A stretch of DNA of 64,000 nucleotides. It comes from a virus (taxonomy: Duplodnaviria; Caudoviricetes). Positions 39,360-43,920 of the stretch are shown here, piece after piece. The stretch's first letter is position 1. Each line of letters starts with the position of its first letter. The stretch lies in IMG/VR virus record IMGVR_UViG_2974508059_000001, positions 160,001 through 224,000 of that record; one strand, written 5' to 3'. The position numbers were made by a program, and so were the translations under genes. The notes below the pieces were generated by a model. That model was not told the origin of the DNA, did no database searches, and saw nothing but the letters and a program-made list of their open reading frames with translations.

Positions 39360-39761
39360 ATGAATAAGATTGAATACAAAGACGGCGAAGGTGCCTTCAT
39401 TAACGGCGTATTGATTCCGAACTCCCACAACGGGCATTGGAAAGACGCAGCATTTGCTCTGGCCACCGGTTTCAACATGACCATCACCAACGAGCTGTCT
39501 CTGAACAATTCGCTGGATGCCATCACCAAGGGCGGTTGTTTTCGTATCAACGCAGAAGCGGCGGGTGCGCTGTTACAGAATGCGGACTTCACCAGCGGCA
39601 TGTACGCCTACCGTCAGTTGGGTATTCTGCGTACCCTGTCTGGTAAGCATATCGGGCAAGGGCATCCGCCATCCACTTTCAAGCCGAACTCCATTGTCCT
39701 GGTCAGCTACTTCAGTGACCGCGAAGAGATGTTGGGCTTCAATGTTATCTGGGGTATCTGA
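39360..39761 (+). CDS. Hypothetical protein, family shared with 43929 and 44413
   Basis: MNKIE...AFINGVLIP...FRINAEAAGALLQNADF. Confidence 0.75.
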   Translation: MNKIEYKDGEGAFINGVLIPNSHNGHWKDAAFALATGFNMTITNELSLNNSLDAITKGGCFRINAEAAGALLQNADFTSGMYAYRQLGILRTLSGKHIGQGHPPSTFKPNSIVLVSYFSDREEMLGFNVIWGI

Positions 39762-40336
39762 TGACTGACTTTAATCCCGTAGCCGTTGTTCGCCAAGTCG
39801 AACAGTGGAACGACCGTGCCTTGGTTTACCAGTTCGGTAACATCCGTCAACAAATCACCAAATACTACCGCATGTTGGGCATGGTTGCGGAAGGTGTGCA
39901 GAAGATGGACAGTCTGTTGGTCTCAGCGGGCGTAGGACAGGCTGTAACGACGTTAATAGGTGTCCTCGGGTTCTACTCGCGTAAAACGGACATCCCCGTA
40001 GAAGCCGTTACAGAGGTCGTGCTGCACTCTGCCCTGAATAACATCCCACCGGGCATGAAATACGGCAACGACTATAACACGATTCTGTTTGAGCACAACA
40101 AGGCTATCACCCAGTTGTTCGATGCCCTGCTGGCCAACGAGCAGGAGAAGCAGCGTCAGGACATCGTGTTCTACTCCAAGCTTGCAGAAGCACTGGCGTT
40201 GTTGCTGTCGATTGCCACCGCCAAAGACATCATCGTGACCCGCAGCATTCTGAATGCGGTGAATAAACTCGAAGCGACTGAGGGCGTGATGAACGAACTC
40301 GGTCAGTTTGTCAAAACAGTGACAGGAAACAAATAA
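39761..40336 (+). CDS. MazG-like protein lacking catalytic acidic residues
   Basis: Aligns by eye to the MazG domain of 42538 (QW...Q.TK.Y...G..A.GV.K...GVG; G..N..G.FVK). Confidence 0.55.
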
Positions 40337-41358
40337 TGCGCCAGTATCTTCAATTGATGGAATCCGTCCTCTCTTTCGGTCATGAAAAGAAAGACCGTAC
40401 CGGCACCGGAACGCGCTCCTTGTTCGGGGCCCAGATGCGCTTTGACCTGACCGAAGGCTTCCCACTGGTGACCACGAAAAAGGTTCACCTGCGCTCTATC
40501 ATTCACGAGCTGCTGTGGTTCCTGAAAGGTGATACCAACATCGGTTACCTGAAAGACAACAACGTTTCCATCTGGGATGAGTGGGCTGATGAGAACGGCG
40601 ACCTAGGACCGGTGTACGGCAAGCAGTGGCGGGAGTGGATGGATTACCGTGTCATTGGCGAAGACAACGCAGAGCAAGCGGCGTTGTTGAAGAAAGCAGG
40701 CTACAAGTTCTTCGGTAGTGAAACGGGTGTTGCGTTAGAAGAGCCTGATATCTGGGTCCGTAAAACTGACCAAATCTCCAAGGTCATCGACCAACTGCGC
40801 AACGATCCGGACAATCGCCGCATTATTGTCAGTGCGTGGAACGTAGGTGAGTTGGACCAGATGGCGTTGGCCCCGTGTCATTCTTTCTTCCAGTTCTATA
40901 CGCGCGAGCTGACGCTGTACGAGCGTGCTCTTGCTGCAAAAGAGAAAGGCACCGAAGACTACTACCTGAATCTCAATGAGAAACATCAGGAGCAGCTGCA
41001 TTACGAGTTCGATGAATTGGCTGTTCCCCGTCGCGGTCTATCGTGTCAGTTGTATCAGCGCAGCGCCGATGTCTTCTTGGGCGTACCGTTTAACATCGCC
41101 TCGTATGCTTTACTGACTGAGATGATTGCTCAGCAGGTCAACATGGTGGCCGAAGAGTTCGTCTGGACAGGCGGTGATACGCATCTGTATTCCAACCATC
41201 TGGAGCAGGCACGTCTGCAGTTAACACGTGACCCGCATCCGTTACCGCGTCTGAAAATCAAACGCAAGCCCGACTCTATCTTTGACTACCAGTTCGAAGA
41301 CTTTGAAGTCGAAGGTTACGTTTCACACGACGCTATCAAAGCGCCAGTTGCTATCTAG
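40336..41358 (+). CDS. thyA: Thymidylate synthase
   Basis: [61 protein letters not shown]. Confidence 0.97.
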
Positions 41359-41366
41359 GAGGTCAC

Positions 41367-41762
41367 ATGACTATTTGTGCTTACTTCTATTCTTACCCAA
41401 AAACCTCGGTCAGTAGTATTGTGCGCAATGCTTGGGATCACAACAAGCCGATTAGCCACATCGACCATGTCTACGGTGAGGTCGAAAATGACCAAGACAA
41501 AATGGAGTGGTCGGCTCGAACCTCATTCTGTTACGAGGCGCTGAAACTCATTACGCCGAAAGACAAAGAAGGTTGTTATCACGGTGACGAGGAATTCTCT
41601 ATCAGTCGTGAGACACTCATTGCGTTTAAAGCGAATGTCGAACAGCTCGATCAAAAAGACGCGATGGGTGAAGATTGGGTGAAGGTAACACTCTACGAAC
41701 TCCAGCAACTCATCGATACTTTCAACTTCGATGAGAAGTATCTTACCGTCCAGACCGATTAA
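41367..41762 (+). CDS. Hypothetical protein
   Basis: AGGAGG SD. Confidence 0.8.
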   Translation: MTICAYFYSYPKTSVSSIVRNAWDHNKPISHIDHVYGEVENDQDKMEWSARTSFCYEALKLITPKDKEGCYHGDEEFSISRETLIAFKANVEQLDQKDAMGEDWVKVTLYELQQLIDTFNFDEKYLTVQTD

Positions 41763-41785
41763 AAACGTGATTCCGCAGTTCTATG
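41761..41785 (+). promoter_or_regulatory. Putative middle promoter AAAAAC-N15-TATG
   Basis: AAAAAC GTGATTCCGCAGTTC TATG. Confidence 0.55.
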
Positions 41786-41818
41786 CTGAAACACACAACT
41801 GAAAAGAAGGAAAGCGAG

Positions 41819-42010
41819 ATGTCCCAGAAAGAAAGCTCCATGCAGTCTACCATCAACCAGCACAACCAGATGGTTGCGGATGACGCCGACGACAGTTTCG
41901 ACCTGCCGGGTCTGGACGACGCCGAAGCGCGTGTGGCTGAGAAGCGCGATGCCGAAGAAAATCAGGAAGACATTTCTGATGAAGCGGATTGCGAAGGCTG
42001 CAAAATCTAA
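41819..42010 (+). CDS. Acidic peptide with C-terminal CxxC resembling the NrdA redox tail
   Basis: AAGGA SD; ends ...QEDISDEADCEGCKI-stop. Confidence 0.7.
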   Translation: MSQKESSMQSTINQHNQMVADDADDSFDLPGLDDAEARVAEKRDAEENQEDISDEADCEGCKI

Positions 42011-42018
42011 GTAGTGCT

Positions 42019-42050
42019 TGCCCCGCCACGTGCGGGGTATTCTTTTATTA
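42019..42050 (+). terminator. Intrinsic terminator
   Basis: GCCCCGC-CACGT-GCGGGGT then ATTCTTTT. Confidence 0.7.
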
Positions 42051-42537: not shown

Positions 42538-43920
42538 ATGGGCGAGCAATTTGTTATCCAAGTGCCATACGTTGCACTGTTTAATCCGAACAACTTCCTG
42601 ATGGAAGTCAACGATGCGCTGAAGGTACTGAAAGAGGAAGGGCGTGCGAACATCCTGTTCCGCACTATCCGTTCACTCGACCGCAATGTCGAAACCGGCA
42701 CATGGTACATCGAAGGTGACTTGGCACCGGAAGAGGGCGACGTCGAAGAAGATCCGGAGATGCAGTTTAACCGCATGCGTGACCTCGATAATTACGACTG
42801 CGAACTGAACCTGCCGCTGCTGCACGTTCTGCTGGCCGCACCGTTGTACGATGCACAGAAAAACATCGTGACCCATCCGCGTTATATCCGCCTGTTCCAA
42901 ATTCCTGAGCTGATTCAGAAAATCAAAGGCTGGTCACAAGCGCGCGGCATTCTGGACAACGGCATCTGGTACACCCAAGCCACCAAGATGTACGAAGAAG
43001 ACGGTGAGATTGCCCCGGGTGTGGCCAAGTCCAAACGTAACATGGTTATCGACGGCGTCGGTGACATGATCGTGGTAATGGTTAACCTGCTGGAGCTGAC
43101 GAACTTTAATTCCGAGGCCATTACGGCGATGGTTGCTTCTGTCCGTAAAGAAGCACCGCCTATGGGTAATGCACACTACCTGTACCACAAGCTGCGTATG
43201 TCGAACACGCTGTCCGTCGACTACATGTGGGAAGTCGCTGGCGTGGATTCGCCGAAGCAGTTGACCCGTACGATGTTTGATGAAACACAAATCAAATACG
43301 CTATCGGTCATCTGGGCGACTGTTTGATCTTTGCCAATGCGCTGGCTAATGCGTACGAGTTCACGCTGGAGCAAGCCCTGTCCATGGCGTGGGATGAAAT
43401 CAAAGACCGCACCGGTTTTCTGAACGCAGACGGTGTGTTTGTGAAGGAGTCTGATATGTCTGAAAACGATCGTATCCAACGTGCCCTGAAAGACACCGAA
43501 AAAGCCGGTAACTTTGACGGTGATAATAGCCCTGCGCGCAAACTGGAAGTTGACCTTTCAGGCGAACACGCAACCACGACCGCCCGTGGAATGACCTCAG
43601 CCTTCACGGCGGTTGATGAACTGGGAACTGTCGAGCCACCAACCAAAGAGATCTCTTACTTCCCGGTTGTGCCGACTACTGAACAACTGAGCGCAGCGAC
43701 CGATGCTATTCATGCAACACTCGGCGGTGACTCAGTACAGTTTGTCCGTGTAGGCACCTACTACGGTGGTGACACGTTCTACCCTCGTCCGCACATCCTG
43801 TTTGAATTCACACTCGACGGTCGTCCGGGAACGCGCCATCAGCAGGTTGAAGAAGGCGAGTATTGGGAATTTGCTGACGATGCGGCGTCTTACATCGTGC
43901 GTGAGCCTATCAGCGACTAA
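42538..43920 (+). CDS. MazG-like NTP pyrophosphohydrolase with extra domains
   Basis: KIKGWSQARG...TKMYEEDGEIA...DGVGD; AWDEIKDRTG...GVFVKESD. Confidence 0.8.
   Translation: MGEQFVIQVPYVALFNPNNFLMEVNDALKVLKEEGRANILFRTIRSLDRNVETGTWYIEGDLAPEEGDVEEDPEMQFNRMRDLDNYDCELNLPLLHVLLAAPLYDAQKNIVTHPRYIRLFQIPELIQKIKGWSQARGILDNGIWYTQATKMYEEDGEIAPGVAKSKRNMVIDGVGDMIVVMVNLLELTNFNSEAITAMVASVRKEAPPMGNAHYLYHKLRMSNTLSVDYMWEVAGVDSPKQLTRTMFDETQIKYAIGHLGDCLIFANALANAYEFTLEQALSMAWDEIKDRTGFLNADGVFVKESDMSENDRIQRALKDTEKAGNFDGDNSPARKLEVDLSGEHATTTARGMTSAFTAVDELGTVEPPTKEISYFPVVPTTEQLSAATDAIHATLGGDSVQFVRVGTYYGGDTFYPRPHILFEFTLDGRPGTRHQQVEEGEYWEFADDAASYIVREPISD

Follow-up and report, generated by a model that had tools for sequence, protein, structure and literature searches.

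The gene at positions 41819–42010 (+ strand) of the 64-kb stretch of DNA analysed here (the window) encodes an acidic micro-protein of 63 residues, P0002, which ends in a close imitation of the redox tail of class Ia ribonucleotide reductase (RNR). It belongs to a family that is present both in phages lacking an RNR large subunit and in the chromosomes of Erwinia-type bacteria. On the basis of these observations, we suggest, with a probability of roughly 40%, that the protein is a dithiol tail that would act in trans in the relay from host glutaredoxin (Grx) or thioredoxin (Trx) to the host reductase NrdA.

The open reading frame extends from an ATG at 41819 to a TAA at 42008–42010, as read from the sequence, and is confirmed as a real gene under selection. 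Comparison with three orthologues gives dN/dS values of 0.10–0.32 (Nei–Gojobori), indicating purifying selection, and the orthologue in Erwinia phage pEa_SNUABM_11 is likewise 63 residues long, is 82% identical and has the same end. The start conserved in orthologues is the ATG of the 63-residue protein and not the upstream ATG at 41783. A Shine–Dalgarno-like site, GAAGGAAAG, lies 5–13 nt 5′ of this start (41806–41814, +), with similar sites 5′ of the orthologues, and the gene is followed by a strong intrinsic terminator (42019–42049, +), with a G+C-rich stem of 8 pairs at 42019–42039, 6 of them G–C, and then a T-run, TTCTTTTATT. The initial annotation had given the gene a Shine–Dalgarno site, a terminator and a promoter of its own, of which the first two are borne out. 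The proposed promoter, AAAAAC-N15-TATG at 41761–41785, was rejected, because it has no likeness to sigma-70 promoters and occurs only twice in the window.

P0002 contains 19 Asp and Glu residues against 5 Lys and Arg, giving a pI of 4.05 and a charge of about −14. Its only cysteines are C58 and C61, within the C-terminal sequence DEADCEGCKI. AF2, run with the family alignment, predicts two modest helices (residues 3–23 and 32–47), with the last 16 residues as coil (pLDDT 55–57). Two segments stand out. Residues 52–63 (ISDEADCEGCKI; 41972–42007, +) form the NrdA-tail-like end, with its C58-x-x-C61-K-I terminus, identified from profile comparison, from identical ends of phage NrdA proteins and from the predicted coil. 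Residues 24–38 (DDSFDLPGLDDAEAR; 41888–41932, +) form a second, acidic-hydrophobic motif that runs into a helix. This motif is common to the family members in alignments A1 and A2, where it has the form [DE][DE]xF[DN][LI]..L[DE]xAE (DDxFDxDxxxLxxAE).

The genome from which the window derives is 244,950 bp long and 99% complete, and the closest relative of the phage in GenBank is Erwinia phage pEa_SNUABM_11 (Wellingtonvirus). The gene had been placed between thyA and a MazG gene. The first of these neighbours, a nucleotide-metabolism gene encoding thymidylate synthase, is clear (40336–41358, +; PF00303, E 7e-115). The second is not supported: the 460-residue downstream protein (42538–43920) has no Pfam match at E≤0.01, and neither has its putative paralogue (39761–40336). 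Two additional open reading frames, of 131 and 152 residues, intervene among thyA, the peptide gene and the gene for the 460-residue protein. The 131-residue frame (41367–41762, +), which lies between thyA and the peptide gene, has no match in Pfam or PHROG and is missing from a close relative, in which a 3.5-kb metatranscriptome contig joins position 41351 to 41759 with only CAT between them, so that the peptide gene comes directly after thyA. It therefore looks like an inserted or optional gene.

Contigs from RNA libraries, belonging to relatives that are 90–97% identical and coming from two studies (X1 and X3 from one, X5 from the other), cover the peptide gene. They were rejected as evidence of expression, because contigs cannot prove transcription and DNA may be present in the libraries.

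The class Ia RNR alpha tail, as seen in E. coli NrdA (Cys754/Cys759), in T4 and in phage NrdA proteins ending ...EDC[ED]GCKI, consists of an acidic flexible stretch, a pair of cysteines 2–4 residues apart, K-[IL] and a free C-terminus. P0002 has the same layout, C58-E-G-C61-K-I-stop, as do the NrdA proteins of E. coli, Erwinia, T4 and 13 other phages, and its acidic pI and the predicted coil of its last 16 residues provide the flexible acidic segment. The NrdA C-termini of E. coli, Erwinia, Pantoea, Serratia and Rahnella are D(D/G)CESGACKI, and that of T4 is DDCAACKL. The host-like Cx4C spacing also occurs in some members of the family, such as that of pEa_SNUABM_25, which ends ECEGGACKI. A comparison of the family alignment (A2) with NrdA tails (A3) using hhalign gave a probability of 94.4% (E 8.9e-8), confined to the last 12 columns; there is no NrdA match beyond these, and the first 30 or so residues of the family core have no counterpart in NrdA. 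Judged by sequence, the resemblance to a class Ia redox tail proposed in the initial annotation therefore holds, as a true look-alike of about 12 residues only.

The same heptapeptide was sought throughout IMG/VR, by scanning for D-C-[DE]-G-C-K-I-stop. This produced 111 places, comprising 13 true NrdA proteins, 32 small acidic members of the present family, 9 proteins of family PF13876, and 57 copies of an unrelated prophage frame. The 13 are genuine phage reductases, which possess the ATP-cone, all-alpha and barrel domains of NrdA and terminate in DC[ED]GCKI. The 57 were set aside as an S/R/C-rich, non-acidic frame of one repeated enterobacterial prophage sequence. This frame, found at L013, L016, L019 and 54 other viral loci, has 134 codons, ends ...FTYLDCEGCKI and recurs with hardly any change in contigs of enterobacterial prophages; it probably does not code for protein but lies within a conserved gene, and it has no relation to the P0002 family.

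The family itself corresponds to PHROG 10239, which its database labels as phage proteins of unknown function. P0002 matches this profile with E 3.2e-5, residues 25–63 aligning with profile positions 10–47 of 47, and DIBBI_002 matches it with E 3e-19. Searches using tblastn matched 67 phage records (phages of Erwinia, Serratia, Pantoea, Dickeya, Pectobacterium and Xanthomonas) weakly but over the full length, every alignment extending as far as the final residue. Using a Cx4C member as the query adds jumbo phages of Klebsiella, Raoultella, Yersinia and Salmonella, and tblastn with a family member as query also reaches the reductase C-termini of Colwellia and Pseudoalteromonas phages, with weak E-values. 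A profile (A1) of 23 members was then searched against 1.84 billion protein representatives, giving 51 clusters at E≤1e-3. Both terminal cysteines are kept in all 51 representatives, and loss of these cysteines among homologues was one of the findings that the initial annotation had named as telling against it. Most representatives end in DC[ED]GCKI, while a few have Cx3C or Cx4C spacing, or K-L, S-I or T-I ends. The members of A1 were collected using a DNA pattern for the end motif, and the invariance of the end within A1 is thus by construction; the tblastn and profile matches are free of this bias. Some members carry unrelated N-terminal domains of 90–420 residues. The tail was previously treated as a stand-alone gene, and P0002 is indeed free-standing, but that treatment missed both the large family and the second motif, and the part shared with NrdA is short.

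Neither Pfam nor NCBIfam has a model for the phage protein or its bacterial relatives. Searches with P0002 of PDB sequences, and of a word index for longer fused relatives (using the single sequence as query), gave nothing at E≤10, and the ESM Atlas contains only unnamed clusters, below 0.9. The name TraD on a few UniRef entries is automatic and unsupported, and was discarded. We found no paper containing the terminal motifs or the PHROG number, and a search by concept likewise gave no relevant paper. The family thus appears to be without prior publication, and what is new here is a free-standing RNR redox tail with no tail-less partner.

The genes around the family members vary with the phage. 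In AH04 and three relatives from IMG/VR (L024, L057, L060), the peptide gene begins 5–7 nt after the end of a Grx gene whose product has a CxFC active site. The initial annotation had proposed a search for small open reading frames with such an end near thyA in related phages. Family genes were found near thyA or the gene for dCMP deaminase in Y3, Yoloswag and Y2, and the gene in the window adjoins the thyA region, but in DIBBI-like phages the family gene instead precedes the small terminase gene. In Y2-like phages it is beside lysis-region genes.

Several of these loci have features of their own. In Erwinia phage Y2, the open reading frame of the member (L007:2501–2611, +) is unannotated and overlaps the annotated start of gp40, an 'Rz-like spanin', and several records related to Y2 annotate only the spanin at that site. 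In pEa_SNUABM_25 (L003:3553–4174), the last 14 nt of a 166-residue gene are shared with the peptide gene, an arrangement suggestive of translational coupling. In Yoloswag (L010:2728–3168), the peptide forms the C-terminal portion of gp34, a protein of 146 residues.

None of the carriers appears to encode a reductase to which the peptide could belong. The initial annotation noted that the window holds no nrdA catalytic body, and this extends to the whole 99%-complete genome, which lacks PF02867, PF00268 and PF13597 and in which neither an RNR of any class (I, II or III) nor a Grx or Trx was found. The large-subunit domain PF02867 was not found in AH04, DIBBI, Moabite, Y2 or Y3, nor in 24 additional carriers, of which 17 are at least 90% complete. 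It is thus present in 0 of 30 carriers tested, spread over about 12 lineages, whereas NrdA homologues are encoded in at least 5000 of the 50,697 phage records. The suggestion that the peptide complements a tail-less phage NrdA is refuted by this result, since the genome contains no tail-less nrdA, nor any other RNR, and none of the 30 carriers encodes PF02867.

The DNA pattern that identifies the phage genes also matches at least 120 bacterial genomes, almost all of Erwinia, Pantoea, Tatumella, Mixta, Serratia, Rahnella, Ewingella, Hafnia, Budvicia and Sodalis. Each match is an open reading frame of 43 residues, M[SNK]DD[IM]F[DE]FDIDAxLxxAE...DEADCEGCKI, annotated at source as 'hypothetical protein'. 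In A2 these frames are collinear with the phage proteins over the whole core of about 43 residues, including both motifs, residues 24–38 of P0002 aligning with the bacterial DDIFDFDIDAxLxxAE. The bacterial 43-residue proteins (of Erwinia, Pantoea, Serratia, Rahnella, Hafnia and Budvicia), like the members of PHROG 10239, are thus true homologues of P0002, from which P0002 differs by a 20-residue N-terminal extension (MSQKESS...). Examples are found at L125:6205–6333 (+) and L177:5082–5213 (−), and at about 115 others (L122–L241).

The gene order is steady within genera, being ylaC-X-nhaP2 in Serratia and yedI(DUF808)-X in Erwinia and Pantoea (62 of 119 loci), and the bacterial homologues are therefore chromosomal genes and not prophage cargo. 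In a profile search, 76 of the 401 species sampled from Erwinia's GTDB family, about a fifth, had a single copy, which is broken in 2 of the 76 (G462, G546); homologues were also found in 9 of 401 for the order. E. coli K-12 has no homologue by profile A1; there, the gene after yedI is yodC, which is unrelated. In the neighbourhoods surveyed, the bacterial homologues are never beside nrdA, nrdB, yfaE or grx, and the neighbours that they do have (yedI/DUF808, ylaC, nhaP2, nhaB and dcuA) give no functional hint. The NrdA proteins of Erwinia, Pantoea, Serratia and Rahnella are intact at the tail, all having CESGACKI. It is worth adding that RNA-library contigs from seed metagenomes, matched by window positions 41977–42011, also hold a bacterial homologue (...KAAEVPADLG followed by DEADCEGCKI), and that a host-type gene is therefore present alongside the phage in those libraries.

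The tail is also found on a quite different protein. Nine PF13876 proteins of N4-like phages of about 73–75 kb carry the extension ...[ND]DL[VI]xxLxxDDC[ED]GCKI, which is close to the ...DDLVPSIQDDGCESGACKI of E. coli NrdA. PF13876 is the Acb4 family of anti-CBASS sponges (bioRxiv 10.1101/2024.12.30.630793), and such sponges are often fused with other counter-defence modules (bioRxiv 10.1101/2024.12.30.630793, 10.1101/2025.07.12.664507). The tail extension is not mentioned in the portion of the Acb4 preprint text that was searched. Tail carriers of the Acb4 family include L055:1913–2266 (−), L045, L118, L037, L093, L104 and L109, which are Erwinia-type contigs ending ...DDC[ED]GCKI, while gp21 of E. 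coli phage IME11 (L251:1453–1875) ends NNECEGGGCKI, with the Cx4C spacing of the host. NrdA is absent from the N4-like phages that have tailed PF13876 proteins. P0002 itself has no Gp49/Acb4 domain (there is no Pfam match) and shares only the tail with the PF13876 proteins.

How might such a peptide work? In class I RNR, Trx or Grx reduce the cysteine pair of the alpha tail, which then reduces the active-site disulfide (PMC5704485, PMC11903788). We envisage that the acidic peptide would build up after infection, and that host glutaredoxin or thioredoxin would hold its C58-x-x-C61 pair reduced, with a phage NrdC-like glutaredoxin perhaps taking the place of the host reductant in AH04-like relatives. 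The free CxxC-K-I end could then enter the active site of host NrdA and exchange with the Cys225/Cys462 disulfide, in the manner of NrdA's own tail, while the upstream DDxFDLxxLDxAE helix would provide the docking. Because the phage has no RNR and the same family is found in Erwinia-type chromosomes, the peptide would probably act on the host's supply of DNA precursors. The effect that we favour, tentatively, is support of host dNDP synthesis, because the phage depends on host RNR, because of the nucleotide-gene setting, and because one clade brings its own Grx. The occurrence of the tail on many N-terminal fusions is what would be expected if a free C-terminus suffices.

Several observations are counted in favour of this reading, namely the match of the tail to NrdA ends, the conserved cysteines, the lack of RNR in every carrier tested, the adjacent Grx gene and the proximity of thyA or dCMP deaminase. 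Others count against it. The likeness to NrdA is short, and host NrdA already has a tail, which makes the benefit of an extra shuttle doubtful. The bacterial homologues are away from the reductase and glutaredoxin genes, the DIBBI-like and Y2-like genes adjoin terminase or lysis-region genes and not nucleotide genes, and the Acb4 fusion could indicate counter-defence.

There is a precedent in Pseudomonas aeruginosa, whose class II RNR is split: the redox cysteines that serve NrdJa are supplied in trans by a second chain, NrdJb (Crona et al., 2015; PMC4520616). NrdJb resembles the proposed tail in being a separate polypeptide with C-terminal cysteines. However, NrdJb has 229 residues, is encoded in the same operon as the tail-less NrdJa and is required for its activity (PMC4520616), whereas P0002 has no tail-less partner in phage or host, no cognate catalytic subunit being encoded alongside it, and no sequence relation between the two was found. 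P0002 also differs from the class Ia alpha tail. It is not covalently part of a catalytic subunit, being detached from any reductase body; it has the extra conserved N-terminal motif; and its family is found in hosts whose NrdA proteins already bear tails. The possibility that this N-terminal motif mimics the C-terminus of NrdB (DDLSNFQL) was considered and dropped, because its hydrophobic residues are in a different register and it does not stand at the C-terminus.

The absence of RNR from the carriers fits an inhibitor equally well as an activator, and the peptide could be a brake on host RNR, docking on NrdA and filling the active-site pocket or the path of the tail so as to block re-reduction or the access of substrate. 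The host copy would then be a checkpoint regulator, and the phage copy would put a stop to host DNA synthesis. A small inhibitor of this sort is not without parallel: Sml1 and Spd1 of yeasts are small, acidic and largely disordered and act on the RNR large subunit, and Zhang and colleagues are said to have found, in 2007, that Sml1 interferes with regeneration of the active site by the CX2C tail. These proteins are eukaryotic and, unlike P0002, lack a terminal pair of cysteines, and we know of no sequence likeness between them and the P0002 family. In the reductase, the alpha tail and the nucleotide substrates compete for the same pocket (PMC11903788). A host copy beside an intact NrdA tail is also easier to see as a regulator than as a spare shuttle, the second conserved motif could be an anchor, and its carriage only by phages without an RNR would avoid self-inhibition. 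On the other hand, such phages would starve themselves unless fed by the breakdown of host DNA, and the pairing with a phage Grx, together with thyA and dCMP deaminase, suits supply better than blockade, which leads us to think this role unlikely.

The fusions raise a different possibility, that the tail is a portable epitope, a handle or decoy that traps Trx or Grx by a mixed disulfide for a purpose other than RNR, possibly counter-defence. It is attached to PF13876/Acb4-family proteins and to several unrelated N-terminal domains, it would join an anti-CBASS sponge of a kind often fused to counter-defence modules, and in small phages its gene lies outside nucleotide clusters. We regard this as rather improbable. 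To our knowledge, no defence system relies on Trx, Grx or the NrdA tail; it would be odd for a phage to encode its own Grx next to a Grx decoy; and the strict retention of the NrdA-type K-I end suggests that the NrdA pocket matters too. Least likely of all is that the likeness has no bearing on RNR, the cysteines binding Zn or Fe and perhaps bridging two peptides, or that the peptide is a degenerating vestige of an nrdA that has been lost. An acidic peptide with one CxxC knuckle can act as a metal chelator, little of the protein resembles NrdA, and the bacterial genes follow genes for membrane proteins (yedI, ylaC) and not redox genes. Yet NrdA tails are mirrored in the last seven residues, in the acidic stretch ahead of them and in the two spacings, CxxC and Cx4C, and a remnant would not persist under purifying selection, as a single intact copy, in about 12 phage lineages and 76 of 401 host species.

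A role as a trans-acting tail for host NrdA is therefore the reading that we prefer, and it leads to a broader and more doubtful one. Enterobacterial hosts and their phages may share free RNR-tail micro-proteins that form a control layer on the re-reduction of class Ia RNR, acting either as a shuttle or as a counterpart of Sml1, and phages without an RNR (jumbo phages, and N4-like phages by way of Acb4 fusions) may use their copies to seize the dNTP supply of the host. Of the two halves of the RNR cycle, re-reduction through the alpha tail is the less well understood, and it is thought to limit steady-state turnover, and we know of no bacterial or phage protein that acts in trans on this step in class I RNR. 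The family is conserved, under purifying selection and easily synthesised, and occurs in many phages without an RNR and, within one enterobacterial family, in roughly one in five of the species sampled. If the target is Trx or Grx, it would be a new kind of phage redox decoy. More generally, it offers a handle on whether the tail acts as a diffusible shuttle or as a competitive plug, and on how phages without an RNR obtain their deoxynucleotides.
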